DNA of 19,276 nucleotides, from IMG/VR virus record IMGVR_UViG_2617270963_000006, one strand, 5' to 3'. A model generated the notes under the pieces. It worked only from the letters and a program-made list of their open reading frames with translations. It did no database searches and was not told the origin of the DNA. This document shows, piece by piece, positions 2,602 to 19,276 of the stretch. The number at the start of each line of letters is the position of its first letter. The stretch's first letter is position 1. The position numbers were made by a program, and so were the translations under genes. The DNA is from a virus (lineage: Duplodnaviria > Heunggongvirae > Uroviricota > Caudoviricetes).

Positions 2602-3058
2602 AATTATCTCCATTTTCACAAATGAACTTTGTTGATGCGGTGCCTGGTGCCTCCAGGTGGCGTTAACCAGTTAACAATTAACGCCGGGTCAGGGGACGAT
2701 GACTTTCCGTGACATCCTGTCGGTTTAACTGTTCCGCGTGCGCTGAGCCGCATTCACCGCATCACAAAATTCACTTTAAAAAGGGCGGACATCAGCAATC
2801 GGCAAACCGATATCCGCCAAGGGTTACACACAGCAATGTTGTTATTCACAACCGGAAGCGCACGGTCGAAGAAATCTAACGACAATCCTTCTATGGGAAA
2901 GAGTCTTCGCCTCGCGCTTTCGTGTAGTACCCTGGCTTTTCAGGGTAATGTCTGTTCAGTAAAGTGAGAGTGCCGGAACTCACCCGTGTCCGGCGCACGA
3001 TCTCCACCTCACCCGTGGAGAACTCCTCAACTACAAACCCCGTAAGGAGAGTGAATTT

Positions 3059-3268
3059 ATGACACAAGAAGAAAAAGTGATGTTTCTGATGCGGCTGGCT
3101 GTCGATACCTACAATACACAATTCAGGGAGAAAGATATACCTCAAAAGGCAGTTCCTGCCGCGGTAGATAAGGGCGGTGCTATTGCCGTATTTTACGATG
3201 CATTTGAATCATTTTTTGATGAAAAACTCGACGCTGTTAGCGACTTCGGAACATCGAGTAATAAATAA
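3059..3268 (+). CDS. hypothetical small protein, 69 aa, opposite in orientation to the surrounding early-left genes
   Basis: ORF track; strong RBS AAGGAGAG 7 nt before the ATG; its 3' end overlaps the 3' end of the convergent minus-strand gene 3237-3596 by 32 nt. Confidence 0.4.
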   Translation: MTQEEKVMFLMRLAVDTYNTQFREKDIPQKAVPAAVDKGGAIAVFYDAFESFFDEKLDAVSDFGTSSNK

Positions 3269-10643: not shown

Positions 10644-10774
10644 ATTCATTACGATATGGGAATTCCCATATCGGGTAAAAACGGTTTGCGGTAAAGCGAG
10701 AGTTAAGCAGAATTGCTGCGGGTGCTTGAGGCTGTCTGCCTCGGGCATGCCACCGTAAGGCAGACAGAGAAAAA

Positions 10775-10860
10775 CCCCAGTTAACATTACGCGTCCTGCA
10801 AGACGCCTAACATTAATCTGAGGCCAATTTCATGCTAGACACATGTAGGTTAGCCTCTTA
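10775..10860 (-). ncRNA. sok: candidate Sok-like antisense RNA of the hok/sok module (position approximate)
   Basis: Inferred from hok-family organisation: the antisense regulator lies opposite the hok leader. No promoter or terminator was pinned down. Confidence 0.3.
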
Positions 10861-10888
10861 CGCGCCGAAAGGCAAGGAGAAGCAGGCT

Positions 10889-11044
10889 ATGAAGCAGCAA
10901 AAGGCGATGTTAGTCGCCCTGATCGTCATCTGTATTACCGTCGTAGTGACGGCACTGGTAACGAGGAAAGACCTCTGCGAGGTACGAATCCGAACCGGTC
11001 AGACGGAGGTTGCTGTCTTCACAGCTTACAAACCTGAGGAGTAA
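10889..11044 (+). CDS. hok: Hok/Gef-family type I toxin (51 aa)
   Basis: MKQQKAMLVALIVICITVVVTALVTRKDLCEVRIRTGQTEVAVFTAYKPEE is nearly identical to chromosomal Hok homologues (HokD/RelF as recalled). In-frame upstream extension from ATG 10832 (track ORF 10832-11044). Terminator follows. Confidence 0.85.
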   Translation: MKQQKAMLVALIVICITVVVTALVTRKDLCEVRIRTGQTEVAVFTAYKPEE

Positions 11045-12772: not shown

Positions 12773-12851
12773 ACGCCAGCAAAATCTGGCGTCGGGATTA
12801 GGAACCCCGGATAGAAACCGCGACAGAGACACGCCGCGAGCGTGTTTTTTA
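12773..12851 (+). ncRNA. candidate small RNA (about 80 nt) with its own promoter and intrinsic terminator, carrying a TTAGGAAC motif
   Basis: Promoter TTGACA (12737-12742), 18-nt spacer, TATATT (12761-12766). Terminator ACACGC-CGCGA-GCGTGT plus T-run at 12829-12851. No ORF. Confidence 0.3.
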
Positions 12852-13013
12852 TTGTCGTATGCACACGCACATCTGAATTATGGTGGGGCGTATAGGGGAG
12901 CTGAAAAGCTCGCCGGTTGGTTTCCCGGTAGTTCCTAACCCTGTACGTCTCGCCACCCGATGATTAGGAACCTGACGGTGGTGATAGTTTAGAAACCACT
13001 CGAGGGCGTCATT

Positions 13014-15011: not shown

Positions 15012-15205
15012 TGAATGCTAAAATTCAAACGATACCTGAATTACTGATCTGCACCAGGGGAAATCAGACAGAAGTCGCCAGAATACCGAACTGCAATCGT
15101 GCTACAGTCAGAAAATACATTGATGATAAAGATGCGAAAAAGCACGCCGTCGTCAATGGCGTCCTTATGGTTCATCGCGGATGGGGTAAAGATACTGATG
15201 CGTGA
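15011..15205 (+). CDS. small putative DNA-binding (HTH-like) protein, 64 aa
   Basis: ATG at 15011 with GGAG 8 nt upstream; HTH-like segment [20 protein letters not shown]; its 3' end overlaps the Q start by 8 nt. Confidence 0.45.
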
Positions 15206-15578
15206 TATCCGGCAGGTTCTTGAGCGCTGGGGGGCATGGGCGGTAAATAACTATGAGGATGTTACATGGTCGCCCATTGCTGCCGGATTTAAGGGACTGA
15301 TCCCCGAAAAAGTAAAATCACGTCCACAGTGCTGTGACGATGATGCGATGGTGATATGCGGGTGCATAGCCCGCCTTTACCGGAACAATCGCGATCTGCA
15401 TGACTTGCTGGTTGATTACTACGTGTTGGGGGAGACGTTCATGGCGCTGGCACGTAAGCATGGATGCTCTGATGGAACTATCGGTAAAAAATTACAGAAA
15501 GCGGAGGGCGTGGTTGAAGGGATGTTAATGTTACTTGGTGTCAGACTGGAAATGGACCGATATGCGCAACGCCTCTGA
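15198..15578 (+). CDS. Q: late-gene antiterminator Q (QuuD/phage-82-type), 126 aa
   Basis: [25 protein letters not shown] ... [14 protein letters not shown] motif resembles Q antiterminators of DLP12/phage-82 type; position after rusA. Confidence 0.75.
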
Positions 15579-15709
15579 CAGGAGGCGTTTGCCGTTCACT
15601 ATGTGAAGTGTGTCAATTTGTGAGCGTTATGCTGTTTACTTTATAGTACAGGGACGTAAGAGTTATCTACCTGTTAATAACATATATACAACAATGAACA
15701 GGGGGCAAA
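15579..15709 (+). promoter_or_regulatory. candidate late promoter (PR'-like) / Q-utilisation region
   Basis: Location immediately downstream of Q; plausible sigma70 elements TTGTGA-N18-TATAGT near 15626-15656; no hairpin terminator before the next ORF. Confidence 0.3.
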
Positions 15710-16369
15710 ATGGACATTGAAGATTTTCTGGAGGCGGAAGACAATGATCTGTCTCTGTGGAATGATGATATTTTAAGCATTGACTGGTTCGTTATCCTCA
15801 AAGAGCTTTTGAAATACCAGAACAGGTTAAAGTTAAACTATTCAGAATTACTTCTGCTGGCTAATTTTGTTTCATTTCACCAGGACGTAGATTCGCAAAC
15901 ATTACCATCAATATCTCTTTTTGCCACCAGAATGCGTGCATCTCGTGCCATTATAGAAGAAGGCTTTCAACGCCTGGAGGAGAAAGGGATGTTGCAGAAG
16001 ATAAGTTATGCTCAAATCGGTCATGATTATGATTTGCGGAACGTTTATGACATCAAGCCATTAATTCGTAAGTTAATTGAGGTGCTGAAAACCGAGTATG
16101 ATAAAAAGCACACTTGCCCCCTCTGCGGCAAAATAGCTGTCTCTGATGAGGAAATTGAGAAAAAATTCGGATTCAGAATTTGCGGGAATAAGAAAAGGCC
16201 GCAAAGCTGGTGCCGTTCATGCAGAAGCACGAAACAACGCAGACTGAATTCATCGCTAATTGGCAAAAAAAGCCCCGAAAATCTCCGCCCGAGGTGGTGT
16301 GAAGCGTCGCGGAACCCCGGATTCCACTCACGATTGAACGAGGTGCTAAAAAGTATTTTACGTACGTAA
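15710..16369 (+). CDS. hypothetical protein, 219 aa: N-terminal winged-helix-like DNA-binding region, central CxxC...CxxC zinc ribbon, basic C-terminus; AT-rich insert gene
   Basis: ORF track; AGGGGG RBS; visibly AT-rich versus flanking phage genes (by eye, not computed); intrinsic terminator 50 nt downstream. Confidence 0.6.
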   Translation: MDIEDFLEAEDNDLSLWNDDILSIDWFVILKELLKYQNRLKLNYSELLLLANFVSFHQDVDSQTLPSISLFATRMRASRAIIEEGFQRLEEKGMLQKISYAQIGHDYDLRNVYDIKPLIRKLIEVLKTEYDKKHTCPLCGKIAVSDEEIEKKFGFRICGNKKRPQSWCRSCRSTKQRRLNSSLIGKKSPENLRPRWCEASRNPGFHSRLNEVLKSILRT

Positions 16370-16416
16370 AAATCTGCATATCATGATAAGAGTGGTTACA
16401 TTGCCACGCTGCTTAA

Positions 16417-16439
16417 CCCGCCGATGCGCGGGTTTTTTT
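16417..16439 (+). terminator. rho-independent terminator after the 219-aa gene
   Basis: CCCGC-CGATGC-GCGGG followed by TTTTTTT. Confidence 0.7.
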
Positions 16440-16619
16440 GTACCCAGAATCCTGTGAGCTATACGGAAAGTACACAGAAAGGAAGGTACGACCGCAATTA
16501 ATAACAAAATCTTAAAAATCTCATATGGCACTATTAGTTTTCTAAATATTGTATATTTTAAGTATTGCAGGATAACCCTGTAACGAAGTTTGCGTAACAG
16601 CATTTTGCTCTACGAGTTT

Positions 16620-16649
16620 GCCAGCCTCCCCTGGTGGCTGGCTTTTTTT
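16620..16649 (+). terminator. rho-independent terminator
   Basis: GCCAGCC-TCCCCTGGT-GGCTGGC followed by TTTTTTT. Confidence 0.7.
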
Positions 16650-16885
16650 GTATCCGTTCAACGGGAATGTTACATACCTCACAATTAAGTCAGTTGAATG
16701 TTGTCTGCCCGGATGAGAATTTGTTAGAAAAAACTGCATGGTGAATCCCCCTGAGCGGAGGGGCGACTGGTGACGGTATAATCTCTGATTATCAAAACGA
16801 GAATGACGCGGGTTTAGTGGCACCGGGCTGAACTCACCGGGAGGCACCCGGCACCATGCAATGGCACATAGCGCCACTCTCCAGC

Positions 16886-16940
16886 CCCTCTCCGGAGGGG
16901 CTTTCTTATGGACAAAAAAGCCCGCGCTGGGAGACGCGGG
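16886..16940. terminator. back-to-back hairpins: plus-strand CCCCTC-TCCG-GAGGGG then T-rich; minus-strand terminator (A-run, then GCCCGCG-CTGGGAGA-CGCGGGC)
   Basis: Read directly from the sequence; orientation of function uncertain. Confidence 0.4.
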
Positions 16941-17038
16941 CGGCAAGGAATAAACAATGAAACGTGAAGTAATATTTCAGCTGGCGAATAATACCCCATA
17001 GTAATCACTCTGCGCAACTGCGCGACCTTTTTCGAATT

Positions 17039-17095
17039 GCGGGCTGTAGTCTCCCTTCTGCCATTGTCCTGTAACTTCCGGACTTCAGCCCGCTC
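17039..17095 (+). promoter_or_regulatory. 13-bp stem (one mismatch) with a 28-nt loop and T-rich 3' flank, 40 nt upstream of the nanS-p-like start; candidate terminator/attenuator
   Basis: GCGGGCTGTAGTC (17039-17051) pairs with GACTTCAGCCCGC (17080-17092). Confidence 0.4.
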
Positions 17096-17134
17096 CTTAT
17101 TTTACTCACAATATTATCCCGGCCGGGAGGATTC

Positions 17135-18907
17135 ATGGCATTTAAACACTATGATGTTGTCAGGGCGGCGTCGCCGTCAGACCTTGCGAAACGAATAACT
17201 CAAAAACTGAAGGAAGGGGGGCAGCCTTATGGTAGTGCGCTGATTTCGACAGCTGGTTATGGTGCGGAGTTCATCCAGCCAGTTGTGAGTGAGGGGAGCA
17301 TCTCATCACCAGAGGAGCCAGGCAACCGTCCGACGACCTCAGCGCCTTCTGTTGCGCCAGAATATTACTATGTGATCGCGCTTGCTGGTCAGTCCAATGG
17401 TATGTCATACGGTGAGGGACTGCCATTACCGGATACATTCGACAGCCCTGATCCACGTATTAAACAGTTAGCGCGTCGCAGTACGGTGACACCGGGCGGT
17501 GCAGCATGCAAATATAACGACATCATTCCGGCGGACCATTGTCTGCATGATGTGCAGGACATGAGCCGTCTTAACCATCCGAAAGCGGACCTGTCAAAGG
17601 GGCAGTACGGAACCGTGGGGCAGGGGCTGCATATCGCCAAAAAACTGCTGCCGTTTATACCGGCGAATGCGGGCATTCTGCTGGTTCCGTGCTGTCGTGG
17701 GGGTTCAGCGTTCACCACCGGAGCTGATGGCACATACAGTGACGCGAGTGGCGCCTCGGAGAATTCACCCCGCTGGGGTGTGGAAAAGCCGCTGTATAAG
17801 GACCTTATCGGTCGAACAAAAGCGGCACTGGAGAAGAACCCGAAAAATGTGCTGTTTGCCGTGGTGTGGATGCAGGGGGAATTTGATTTTGGCGGTACGC
17901 CGGCAAATCATGCCGCACAGTTTGGTGCGCTGGTTGATAAATTCCGTGCAGACCTGGCGGATATGGCAGGCCAGTGCGTCGGTGGCTCTGCTGGCGGTGT
18001 TCCCTGGATATGCGGGGACACGACGTATTTCTGGAAGCAGAAGAACGAATCCACGTACCAGACGGTGTACGGCAGCTATAAAAATAAAACGGAAAAGAAT
18101 ATCCATTTCGTACCGTTCATGACCGATGAGAACGGGGTGAATGTGCCGACGAACAAACCGGAAGAAGACCCGGACATTCCGGGTATCGGTTATTACGGTT
18201 CGAAATGGCGTGACAGCTCAGCCACCTGGACGTCACAGGACAGGGCGAGCCATTTCAGTTCATGGGCTCGCCGTGGGATTATTTCCGACCGTCTGGCAAC
18301 GGCGATTCTGAGCTGCGCGGGTAAGTCTTCTGCGTTTGTTAATGGTACTGCCGGGGTGGTTGTTCCAGACAGACCGGTTACCACCTCAGAGTCTGTAATT
18401 TTTTACGATGCCAAAAAAGCTACAGACAATCAGCTGAAACCCTATGGCTGGGACGGTGTGTATGGCAGGGGCACACTGGTTGATGACAGCGGCAATAAAG
18501 CTCTGCGAATTGAGAAAAATAACAGCGCGAAATCCTGGTCAATGTACTGTGATATTGCTGCAGACAAGGCAAAACTTTTACTGGAAAAAGGCGGGGAAAT
18601 TGCTGTCCGGTTTAAAATCCCCGAAAACGTCAATCTTGAGACAACCAGAAACAAGTATGCCTTTGGTTTGTACTGGCGAATAGCGGAATGGCCGGGTGAG
18701 GGTGGTGAAGGCCATCTGAGTTCTTTCTTTGTCCAGACAGATAAAGCCAGTATTAATGTTGCATACCATCATACAGTTAATCAACAAAAAGAACTTGGCA
18801 CGTTTGGCGCATTCGACCATGACTGGCATACGCTTGCATTTAAATTTAAGGGCAGTAACAGCATTAATGAACCGCCCCGGGTTTCCTGGAGAGTGTTTTA
18901 TCTGTGA
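17135..18907 (+). CDS. nanS: NanS-p-type prophage esterase (DUF1737 N-terminus plus SGNH/SASA sialate O-acetylesterase domain), C-terminally truncated and fused to IS sequence
   Basis: N-terminus MAFKHYDVVRAASPSDLAKRITQKLKEGGQPYG and the GQSNG motif (IALAGQSNGMSYG) are characteristic of NanS-p encoded downstream of Q/stx in lambdoid prophages. The frame enters the IS at 18868, so the last 12 codons are IS-derived. Confidence 0.75.
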   Translation: MAFKHYDVVRAASPSDLAKRITQKLKEGGQPYGSALISTAGYGAEFIQPVVSEGSISSPEEPGNRPTTSAPSVAPEYYYVIALAGQSNGMSYGEGLPLPDTFDSPDPRIKQLARRSTVTPGGAACKYNDIIPADHCLHDVQDMSRLNHPKADLSKGQYGTVGQGLHIAKKLLPFIPANAGILLVPCCRGGSAFTTGADGTYSDASGASENSPRWGVEKPLYKDLIGRTKAALEKNPKNVLFAVVWMQGEFDFGGTPANHAAQFGALVDKFRADLADMAGQCVGGSAGGVPWICGDTTYFWKQKNESTYQTVYGSYKNKTEKNIHFVPFMTDENGVNVPTNKPEEDPDIPGIGYYGSKWRDSSATWTSQDRASHFSSWARRGIISDRLATAILSCAGKSSAFVNGTAGVVVPDRPVTTSESVIFYDAKKATDNQLKPYGWDGVYGRGTLVDDSGNKALRIEKNNSAKSWSMYCDIAADKAKLLLEKGGEIAVRFKIPENVNLETTRNKYAFGLYWRIAEWPGEGGEGHLSSFFVQTDKASINVAYHHTVNQQKELGTFGAFDHDWHTLAFKFKGSNSINEPPRVSWRVFYL

Positions 18908-19276
18908 ACTCAGGCTGCCAGATCATCGTTTCCGATGGAAGCATAATAAGCTTTTTCTGCTTCTGCCGGAGGAGTATGGCCCAGCCTTTCCAGCAATCGT
19001 CGATTGTTATACCAGTCCACCCACGTGAGTGTGGCCAGTTCCACTTCTGCACGGTTTTTCCAGCTCTTACGGTGTATTACCTCCGCTTTGTAAAGACCAT
19101 TGATGCTCTCCGCCATCGCGTTGTCATACGAGTCGCCTGTACTTCCTGTTGATGCCAGTAATCCGGCTTCCTTAAGCCGCTGTGTGTAGGCCAGCGATAC
19201 ATACTGAGAACCTTTATCACTGTGATGGACCGTGCCGGACGGTCGACGGGCCCATAACGCCTGCTCCAGTGCATCC
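18868..19276 (-). mobile_element. IS3-family insertion sequence, IS629/IS1203-like, copy B (partial; body continues right of window). Terminal inverted repeat begins at 18868.
   Basis: Plus strand from 18868 reads TGAACCGCCCCGGGTTTCCTGGAGAG, matching the copy A terminus over the first 14 nt and 9 of the next 11. Transposase OrfB lies on the minus strand. Confidence 0.8.
18910..19276 (-). CDS. IS3-family transposase OrfB, C-terminal 121 codons (DDE catalytic region); 5' part outside window
   Basis: Minus-strand translation is an open frame from the window edge: DALEQALWARRPSGTVHHSDKGSQYVSLAYTQRLKEAGLLASTGSTGDSYDNAMAESINGLYKAEVIHRKSW...GHTPPAEAEKAYYASIGNDDLAA. Confidence 0.85.
   Translation of the reverse strand, partial: DALEQALWARRPSGTVHHSDKGSQYVSLAYTQRLKEAGLLASTGSTGDSYDNAMAESINGLYKAEVIHRKSWKNRAEVELATLTWVDWYNNRRLLERLGHTPPAEAEKAYYASIGNDDLAA

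Follow-up and report, generated by a model that had tools for sequence, protein, structure and literature searches.

Introduction

The stretch of lambdoid prophages located between pR', or the moron, and nanS-p was reported to contain a convergent sRNA pair in eight Sakai prophages (Tree et al., 2014). The STnc100-type RNAs EcOnc04, EcOnc05, EcOnc06, EcOnc13, and EcOnc27 have published sizes of 177–247 nt (PMC4104026), with EcOnc27 measuring about 235/247 nt and becoming destabilized when Hfq is missing (Tree et al., 2014), and the EcOnc08/21/42 RNA has been described as Hfq-bound, approximately 271 nt long in Sakai and accompanied by a nearby terminator (Table S2, PMC4104026). STnc100 has been mapped 75 nt 3' of stx2 (PMC12370729), it overlaps EcOnc27/sRNA103, and its variants are among the features that predict HUS outcome in O157:H7 infections (PMC12711010). 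Transcriptome reads from cultures of EDL933 have been obtained for all 11 of its 11 annotated STnc100 copies, one of them confirmed by northern blotting (PMC5331693), and RpoD has been found at the STnc100 promoters of Salmonella LT2 (PMC10794520).

A related prophage RNA, PasD, is stabilized by Hfq and forms RIL-seq chimeras (PMC8550237). The PasD1 and PasD2 RNAs of EPEC E2348/69 are taken here to be structural homologues of STnc100 on the authority of Zhu, Shabalina and Storz (bioRxiv 2026), the paper on which this relation rests. Like the STnc100 copies, PasD is prophage-encoded, lies near Q and depends on Hfq for its stability, with PasD2 placed directly 5' of a sialate esterase gene, but it is reported to have a distinct seed region and distinct targets. 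As for the transcription unit in which these RNAs are embedded, a short pR' transcript is known from the biology of StxS (PMC7873438), nanS-p has been placed in the Q-dependent late region (PMC12078605), and it belongs, alongside stx2, to the genes with the strongest induction by norfloxacin (PMC8065619).

Results

The region between pR' and nanS-p

The window analyzed here is a stretch of 19,276 nucleotides of caudoviral DNA (IMG/VR record IMGVR_UViG_2617270963_000006), in which an earlier note had read positions 16,650–17,134 as one structured leader of nanS-p, requiring antitermination of the Q-dependent late transcript. All of the features on which that reading was built were found again at the same coordinates or 1–3 nt away, and most of them belong to an element that is already known. 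The earlier reading holds only in part: instead of a single leader, the region comprises two convergent sRNA genes and a short nanS-p 5'UTR. As a whole, it very probably represents the convergent sRNA pair module of lambdoid prophages, downstream of pR' and between the moron slot and nanS-p; this slot carries stx in Stx phages and is empty here. Family membership, structure, homology, and layout were observed in the DNA itself, starting with the late control elements upstream of the module.

16357..16384, plus strand: late promoter pR', TTTACG-16-TATCAT (promoter scan; base-for-base homologous to the 'putative late promoter' of VT1-Sakai)
16415..16441, plus strand: tR', intrinsic terminator ending the short pR' transcript, in the StxS-type RNA region (terminator scan; identical to VT1-Sakai)
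16618..16649, plus strand: second terminator 3' of pR' (terminator scan; homologous to the second pR' terminator of VT1-Sakai)

The Q protein is encoded at positions 15099–15578 (PF06530) and is 91% identical to the Q protein of VT1-Sakai, while positions 16340–16650 are base-for-base homologous to the pR', qut, and two terminators of that phage. The locus therefore contains a lambdoid Q antitermination system with its cognate pR', and with qut and tR' immediately downstream, despite the insertion of approximately 780 bp between Q and pR'. This insertion, which carries a DnaD_N/HTH_36 ORF, is what sets the locus apart from the usual lambdoid late-operon arrangement. In its homologous Q, pR', qut, and terminators, the arrangement resembles the lambdoid Q system with StxS, and the sRNA module is downstream of these elements and separate from them.

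The similarity to Stx phages extends into the module. At approximately 90% column identity, positions 16685–17140 match the spacers found between stx1B and nanS-p in VT1-Sakai and between stx2B and nanS-p in an O145 Stx2a phage, and this near-identity identifies the region as a Stx-phage module without stx. The spacer of Sakai Sp5 has the sRNA core and the nanS-p 5'UTR in common with the window; its tail differs, and an AsxR module takes the place of the minus-strand module of the window. In RefSeq, a genome that is 100% identical over positions 16380–17140 bears no annotation whatsoever in the interval separating the esterase gene from the ORF that precedes it, and this unannotated stretch is consequently easily mistaken for a leader. 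The position between Q/pR' and the esterase ORF, in the moron slot, and the presence of facing units with adjacent terminators (the plus-strand terminator ends at 16909 and the minus-strand T-run at 16914) are those of the convergent pairs. As in the EcOnc27/AsxR and EcOnc06/AgvB pairs, each strand encodes one sRNA, the two terminators meet tail to tail within about 5 nt, and the site falls between the moron slot and a conserved esterase ORF.

Transfer RNA genes or remnants, such as those found at the corresponding position of Stx phages, were sought and discarded, since ARAGORN predicted no tRNA or tmRNA gene in the window and the Rfam tRNA model had no match. Phage phi296 has an insertion of three tRNA genes immediately 5' of the sRNA module. 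The nanS-p gene of the window is interrupted by an IS3-family element, and the prophage may thus be defective.

A consensus scan of positions 15600–17400 returned eight terminator-like sites, against 1.6 ± 1.2 in shuffled sequences. Folding energies, in turn, were unremarkable and only mildly better than those of shuffles (z = -1.6, -2.1, and -0.7) and were set aside as evidence. The structural support given below comes from homology and covariation, and not from thermodynamics.

A plus-strand sRNA gene of the STnc100 family

16666..16735, plus strand: conserved block 5' of the core, AATGTTACATACCTCACAATT...TTGAAT...TTTGTTAGAAAAAA (homology across upstream contexts)
16708..16913, plus strand: STnc100-family sRNA gene (Rfam RF02076; 165.1 bits, E = 9e-38, model positions 1–206)
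16860..16882, plus strand: variable 3' tail between core and terminator (at least six alternative tail modules in related loci)
16883..16909, plus strand: sRNA intrinsic terminator, hairpin 2 (terminator scan; 3' hairpin of the Rfam model)

The notion that the region might encode a structured RNA was borne out by a scan against all Rfam families, in which RF02076 was matched over its full model (positions 1–206 of 206), well above its gathering score of 47 bits. The consensus helices, comprising a closing helix, two conserved hairpins, and a hairpin with a variable loop, can form and are supported by covariation in an alignment anchored on conserved motifs, and the 3' end is a Rho-independent terminator with an 8-bp stem including six G-C pairs. 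This terminator is the second of the two related hairpins of the earlier note (AGCCCCUC at 16883–16890 paired with GAGGGGCU at 16895–16902, loop UCCG, then UUCUUAU; terminator-like in the consensus scan), and the first (CCCCU at 16748–16752 paired with AGGGG at 16759–16763, loop GAGCGG) is helix P2 of the same RNA. The two hairpins do form a 17-nt direct repeat with 82% identity, and their relatedness stands; what does not is their attribution to a leader, as they are the P2 helix and the terminator of one STnc100 sRNA.

The relatives of the window sRNA within the family are EcOnc27/sRNA103, from the O157 Stx2a phage Sp5/933W, and EcOnc04, EcOnc05, EcOnc06, and EcOnc13, with PasD as a related RNA. 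Its four helices, its 3' terminator, and its location downstream of Q/pR' and upstream of nanS-p are those of STnc100/EcOnc27. The copies found behind stx1B in VT1-Sakai and stx2B in the O145 phage have almost the same 5' leader, core, and terminator; the window copy, for its part, has no stx or tRNA genes upstream. The 3' tail, AAUGGCACAUAGCGCCACUCUCC, is of the Sp15/O145-phage type, whereas Sp5 carries the EcOnc27 tail. In Sakai Sp5, the STnc100 match (positions 2923–3128 of locus L125) adjoins AsxR (3182–3130) on the opposite strand, and the Hfq peak of EcOnc27, together with its probe, which falls in the Sp5 tail, identifies EcOnc27 as the Sp5 copy of STnc100. The probes for EcOnc04, EcOnc05, EcOnc06, and EcOnc13 are antisense to other STnc100 variants recovered from viral contigs, and Hfq-CRAC peaks, northern sizes, and probe sequences together establish EcOnc27, 04, 05, 06, and 13 as STnc100-type plus-strand RNAs. 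By analogy with such homologous copies (EcOnc27 and others, PMC4104026; the STnc100_4 northern, PMC5331693), the copy in the window would be expressed as a discrete, Hfq-associated RNA.

The block at 16666–16735 probably holds the promoter and the 5' leader of the sRNA. Across 61 distinct upstream contexts, homology begins approximately 70–75 nt before P1, mostly right after an upstream terminator, and the EcOnc13 northern probe falls within this block. No convincing -35/-10 pair could be assigned in the conserved upstream block: a consensus sigma-70 promoter was considered for the conserved TTGACW and CACAAT motifs and rejected on account of their unsuitable spacing. At the other end of the RNA, the tail at 16860–16882 is a candidate target-pairing region, a role suggested by its exchange among variants of the family. 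Two other RNAs were considered and discarded: IpeX, from the K-12 prophage DLP12, was rejected as a family member since its locus contains no STnc100 match, and HnrS (EcOnc10-12) is a distinct RNA located elsewhere.

A covarying pseudoknot in the STnc100 core

16736..16859, plus strand: conserved structured core P1–P4 (Rfam alignment structure line, pair counts, covariation)
16736–16743/16852–16859, plus strand: helix P1
16748–16752/16759–16763, plus strand: helix P2 (hairpin 1)
16810–16817/16828–16835, plus strand: helix P3
16837–16841/16847–16851, plus strand: helix P4
16767..16826, plus strand: pseudoknot, X (CUGGUG, 16767–16772) pairing with X' (CACCGG, 16821–16826) in the P3 loop (covariation)
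16773..16809, plus strand: variable X–P3 insert, with TATAAT at 16777–16782 (sequence and length differ among variants)

The sRNA is modular, with a near-invariant core (P1–P4), a variable P2–P3 insert, and a 3' tail that comes in at least six alternative forms. Searching viral contigs with exact patterns yielded 80 loci and 83 distinct variants. Further copies, from Salmonella, Citrobacter, Enterobacter, Klebsiella, Kosakonia, Raoultella, Pantoea, Erwinia, Rahnella, and other genera, came from a scan in which each species was represented by one genome; ten of the loci from the species scan were run against Rfam and all ten were STnc100. The collection of loci through exact motifs fixes some of the alignment columns, and the skeleton alignment used for pair counts omits the variable parts and takes X from two registers.

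In this skeleton alignment of 21 distinct sequences, 98.2% of cells are paired overall, compared with 88.1% in shuffles, none of 500 of which scored as high. Three pairs of P3 show two-sided compensatory changes in the same 21 sequences. P1, P2, and P4 are nearly invariant in the alignment designated A5, in which P1 and P4 depart from the consensus by GC-to-GU changes alone, and the inner pair of P2 is unpaired in 7 of 21 sequences. Changes confined to one side turn GC into GU pairs when read in the plus sense, so that selection is acting on the plus-strand RNA.

Strong covariation is also seen outside the four helices. The segment X, which begins 3–4 nt past P2, can pair with X' in the P3 loop, and all six pairs of this helix have changed on both sides, with 97.6% of cells paired in the 21-sequence skeleton alignment; sliding the partners by 1–3 columns lowers pairing to 35–46%. 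With no register imposed, 97% of a set of 37 sequences and 90% of a set of 103 have an X:X' helix of at least 6 bp, against 24–30% in cross-sequence controls and 13% with shuffled loops. There are 62 distinct X:X' combinations, and P1 covaries in 40 across the Enterobacterales; two variants lack the pseudoknot topology. The X:X' pairing is absent from the structure line of the Rfam match (the structure line, as distinct from the seed alignment), and the term 'pseudoknot' was not found in connection with STnc100 in the searchable papers. On this comparative evidence, the STnc100 core can be said to carry a well-supported covarying pseudoknot.

The insert between X and P3 contains the TATAAT hexamer that had been proposed as a perfect -10 element at 16777–16782. 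The hexamer is there, but with four copies in the window, against 7.2 ± 2.7 expected by chance, it is not enriched, and it lies in a non-conserved insert; it was rejected as an internal promoter. TATAAT, GATAAT, and TATGAT-like motifs recur in other insert types.

The pattern of conservation itself raises a second reading of the plus-strand RNA. A core this strongly conserved next to a freely exchangeable tail is unusual for an sRNA acting solely through a seed, and counts against the explanation of the locus as an sRNA pair. It is possible, if somewhat doubtful, that the core is a structured domain that has its own biochemical function, be it protein or ligand binding or action on the transcription or translation machinery, to which the Hfq tail would be secondary. 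The compact four-helix junction with its pseudoknot, maintained through all of the X:X' and P1 combinations enumerated above, fits such a role, as do the junction and loop nucleotides that are near-invariant across the Enterobacterales (GGUGAAUCCCCCU.GCGG.GGGGC and UCACCGGGAGGCACCCGGCAC) next to an insert and a 3' tail that vary freely, although that invariance is partly fixed by the anchor motifs with which the loci were gathered. Against it, no ligand, protein partner, or phenotype points in this direction, the core has no Rfam match beyond STnc100 and is not tRNA-like according to ARAGORN and the Rfam tRNA model (its four-way junction is cloverleaf-like in topology alone), and published work treats RNAs of this kind as Hfq-dependent sRNAs.

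A putative minus-strand RNA convergent with the STnc100 gene

16914..16941, minus strand: intrinsic terminator of the convergent RNA (terminator scan)
16914..17105, minus strand: putative antisense sRNA of the EcOnc08/21/42 type (northern-probe homology)
17113..17141, minus strand: promoter-like site, ATGCCA-17-GATAAT, overlapping the nanS-p start codon (consensus scan, 9/12 matches)

A terminator on the minus strand had been noticed near 16913–16940, and it is indeed present, with a stem at 16920–16941 followed by a T-run that appears as an A-run at 16914–16919 on the plus strand. At this position, variants of the module carry hairpins of differing sequence, always preceded on the plus strand by an A-run. 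The northern probe for EcOnc08/21/42 aligns to positions 16987–17017 of the plus strand (local alignment score, 25 out of 35), which assigns the detected RNA to the minus strand. The spacer of VT1-Sakai (Sp15), nearly identical to positions 16685–17140, contains the exact probe sequence in the sense orientation. Probe homology, location on the opposite strand, and a terminator at the end are thus those of the EcOnc08/21/42 antisense sRNA, and the minus-strand terminator, as read from these matches, would end an EcOnc08/21/42-type RNA that is antisense to the nanS-p 5'UTR.

The site at 17113–17141 is a putative promoter for this RNA, and variants of its -10 hexamer retain A2 and T6. The 5' end of the antisense RNA is uncertain: transcription from the predicted promoter would place it at approximately 17105 and yield an RNA of about 190 nt, in disagreement with the published length of about 271 nt, for which the RNA would have to start at approximately 17185, inside nanS-p.

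AsxR and AgvB were considered as minus-strand partners and rejected. Neither had a Rfam match in positions 16300–17300 at E-values up to 5, and the Sakai Sp5 locus, used as a control, was positive at 88 bits for AsxR. The anti-sRNA class formed by AsxR, AgvB, and EcOnc03, defined by a length of 51–60 nt and a 3' region of about 42 nt reading ACGAGUAUCUCAUGCAAUUGCCCGAACCCACUCGGGCUUUUU or close to it, is not represented in the window, and the minus-strand module of Sakai Sp5 is unlike that of the window except for its GC-rich terminator. The window differs from the EcOnc27/AsxR and EcOnc06/AgvB pairs precisely in this respect, its minus-strand partner being the longer EcOnc08/21/42 type of Sp4 and Sp15 instead of the 51–60 nt AsxR/AgvB/EcOnc03 class.

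The nanS-p 5'UTR and predicted read-through of the late transcript

17011..17034, plus strand: small hairpin, GCGC-AACU-GCGC, then CCUUUUUCG (terminator scan; weakly terminator-like)
17039..17093, plus strand: long hairpin of the nanS-p 5'UTR or late transcript (inverted repeat I3)
17125..17137, plus strand: nanS-p Shine-Dalgarno GGGAGG and ATG at 17135 (ORF context)

The nanS-p ORF spans positions 17135–18907 and encodes DUF1737, SASA, and DUF6645 domains. Upstream of it, the long stem that had been described as 13 bp with a T-rich tail is formed by 17039–17051 and 17081–17093, with 12 pairs, one U.U mismatch, and a 29-nt loop, and ends 1 nt beyond the position originally given. Among 21 distinct nanS-p upstream regions, 89.5% of cells are paired and two-sided changes affect 6 of its 13 pairs, a number reached by none of 500 shuffles. 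The tail fared differently: the U-tail that follows the stem is not conserved, reading UUAUUUUAC in some loci and UUAUCUGAC in others. The paired changes argue that 17039–17093 is a conserved RNA structure of the plus sense, and the variable tail makes a conserved intrinsic terminator unlikely. In the small hairpin (17011–17024), 96% of cells are paired and, read in the plus sense, all changes are from GC to GU; likewise, every wobble of the long stem is a G.U pair in that sense. Both hairpins lie inside the antisense span, and wobble pairs that form in one sense only indicate that the structure conserved there serves the plus-strand transcript, leaving homology to published data as the sole basis for the minus-strand RNA.

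An anti-Shine-Dalgarno interaction between 16742–16758 of the sRNA and the nanS-p ribosome-binding site (17119–17135; 17 nt, 76% complementary) was entertained and discarded, as alleles with the ribosome-binding sites GGAATAATG, GGAGCAATG, and GAAAGAACCATG lose the match with the sRNA segment unchanged.

On its way from pR' to nanS-p, a polymerase first encounters tR' and the terminator at 16618–16649, then that of the sRNA, and finally the weak site (17011–17034) and the long hairpin. Q-dependent read-through into nanS-p is plausible by analogy, being expected from the biology of lambdoid late operons that have, as here, a cognate Q together with pR', qut, and tR'. Such read-through is a general property of lambdoid late operons, and not what the hairpins are primarily conserved for.

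The proposal that the region is a cis-acting leader or attenuator, blocking transcription into nanS-p unless the polymerase has been modified by Q, and perhaps involving a switch between P2 and the terminator in the window copy, appears improbable. It draws on the three to five plus-sense terminator-like hairpins that separate pR' from nanS-p, on the conservation of the 17039–17093 hairpin in the plus sense, and on the co-induction of nanS-p with late genes. P2 and the terminator are also 82% identical over 17 nt, and the 3' strand of P2 could pair with the 5' strand of the terminator. That alternative pairing is available to the window copy, but the unrelated terminators of other variants are unable to form it, and the switch was rejected on these grounds. 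The same core is also found in many other contexts: in tandem copies, with tails that lack a terminator of this type, and in many Enterobacterales away from nanS-p. Its homologues yield discrete, Hfq-bound RNAs of 177–247 nt without induction, and conservation does not extend to the U-tail of the 13-bp stem. No curated cis-regulatory leader was matched, with only weak, sub-threshold hits elsewhere in the region (Trp_leader, for example, scored 19.9 bits where the threshold is 41).

Lastly, it is very improbable that the locus reflects DNA-level recombination junctions between phage modules, or short ORFs, instead of RNA genes: mosaic tails and inserts are flanked by invariant blocks and mechanically called ORFs of 43–134 aa overlap the region, but compensatory changes and plus-sense-only wobbles point to selection on RNA, the small ORFs have no Pfam match above threshold and are broken by indels in related loci, and homologous RNAs have been detected experimentally.

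Discussion

The convergent sRNA pair provides a simple account of how the region between pR' and nanS-p may operate. On the plus strand, an STnc100-family sRNA of approximately 210–235 nt would be transcribed from a sigma-70 promoter of its own, probably within 16666–16735, and would end at 16883–16909. It would join a variable 3' tail to the conserved four-helix core with its pseudoknot, and by homology it would bind Hfq and regulate in trans. An EcOnc08/21/42-type RNA on the minus strand would start at or inside the 5' end of nanS-p, run antisense to its 5'UTR, and stop at 16941–16914, tail to tail with the sRNA. In the lysogen, pR' transcripts would halt at tR' (16415–16441), so that just the two small RNAs would be produced, and upon induction the Q-modified RNA polymerase would proceed from pR' through all of the plus-strand terminators, that of the sRNA included, into nanS-p. 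The transcription start sites, the targets, the Q-dependent read-through, and any effect of the antisense RNA on nanS-p are predictions of this scheme, and transcription, Hfq binding, and RNA sizes are taken over from the literature on homologous copies.

Identification of the module as an already described element leaves three contributions specific to this analysis: the hairpins have been attributed to their individual transcripts, a pseudoknot in the STnc100 core has gained support, and the nanS-p 5'UTR hairpin is seen to be conserved in the plus sense. A broader proposition, which we regard as unlikely, is that the STnc100/PasD core constitutes a widespread, pseudoknotted four-helix prophage RNA domain of the Enterobacterales with its own function, for instance in binding a ligand or a protein of host or phage, or in cis on late transcripts. 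If this were true, the exchangeable 3' tails and the antisense partner would be add-ons, and the functional center would reside in X:X' and in the near-invariant junction and loop nucleotides.

In Stx phages the module adjoins the Shiga toxin genes, and its correct identification prevents it from being misread as a leader. The pseudoknot and the plus-sense hairpin of the nanS-p 5'UTR provide two structures that can be mutated, and both could bear on the role of these abundant, multi-copy prophage RNAs.

Core structure and variable insert of STnc100

The core of the prophage sRNA STnc100 (Rfam RF02076), present in the window upstream of nanS-p, contains a pseudoknot that joins the segment 3' of helix P2 (16767-16772) to the P3 loop (16821-16826), and its pairing shows strong covariation across the window copy and the related loci gathered from viral contigs and a one-genome-per-species scan (L003-L205). 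Helices P1-P4 and this pseudoknot combine into a four-way junction that resembles a cloverleaf. The pairing does not appear in the structure line that accompanies the Rfam match to STnc100, and the pseudoknot was not mentioned in the literature searched. In the variable insert of the sRNA, -10-like hexamers recur across differing insert types and might mark internal starts of a shorter isoform:

16773-16809 and homologous inserts: TATAAT, TATGAT, GATAAT (after TGG) and CATTAT

STnc100 copies and related sequences

Among the viral contigs, tandem pairs of STnc100 paralogues are found upstream of nanS-p in several prophages (L009, L018, L019, L025, L037, L062, L066, L075, L077), spaced by ~468 nt in most and by 232-267 nt in some, with inserts and tails that differ between both copies. 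Three STnc100 copies and isrI lie on one Enterobacter contig, and in loci from Salmonella diarizonae, Enterobacter and Pantoea (L138, L176, L198) tRNA genes are located within a few hundred bases of STnc100, a layout in other Enterobacterales that resembles the ileZ-argN-argO cluster of Stx phages.

Within the window, the 13-bp stem in the nanS-p 5'UTR has a 5' arm (17040-17054, CGGGCTGTAGTCTCC) that directly repeats the P3 3' strand (16824-16838, CGGGCTGAACTCACC) at 80% identity, which makes its 3' arm 92% complementary to 16824-16835. This repeat could be the leftover of a duplicated sRNA copy, or could let the late transcript form a different long-range pairing. A second complementarity (76%) links an invariant sRNA segment (16742-16758, UGAAUCCCCCUGAGCGG) to the nanS-p ribosome-binding site (17119-17135, CCGGCCGGGAGGAUUCA). 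Because nanS-p alleles with different ribosome-binding sites lose the match, it is probably due to chance or to a generic anti-Shine-Dalgarno resemblance.

Genomic surroundings

Three further Rfam RNAs score above threshold elsewhere in the window:

10720-10894: sok antitoxin RNA (110 bits)
12773-12850: isrK (69 bits)
12876-12960: C4 antisense RNA (66 bits)

At 16362-16438, overlapping the short pR'-tR' transcript, there is also a weak match of isrK type (17 bits).

An insertion of ~780 bp (15579-16340) separates the Stx-phage-type Q gene from its cognate pR'/qut and takes the place of the final ~19 codons that Q has in VT1-Sakai. It encodes this protein:

15710-16369: ORF of 219 aa, with a DnaD_N match (PF21984) and weak HTH_36 matches

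At the other end, the nanS-p ORF stops at 590 aa rather than at ~636-645 aa, and the rest of the window (~18880-19276) belongs to an IS3-family insertion element, of which thousands of E. coli genomes carry copies with 98-99% identity. The esterase gene nanS-p is truncated and separated from the lysis genes, a situation like that of the IS629 insertion in the Sakai prophage Sp5.
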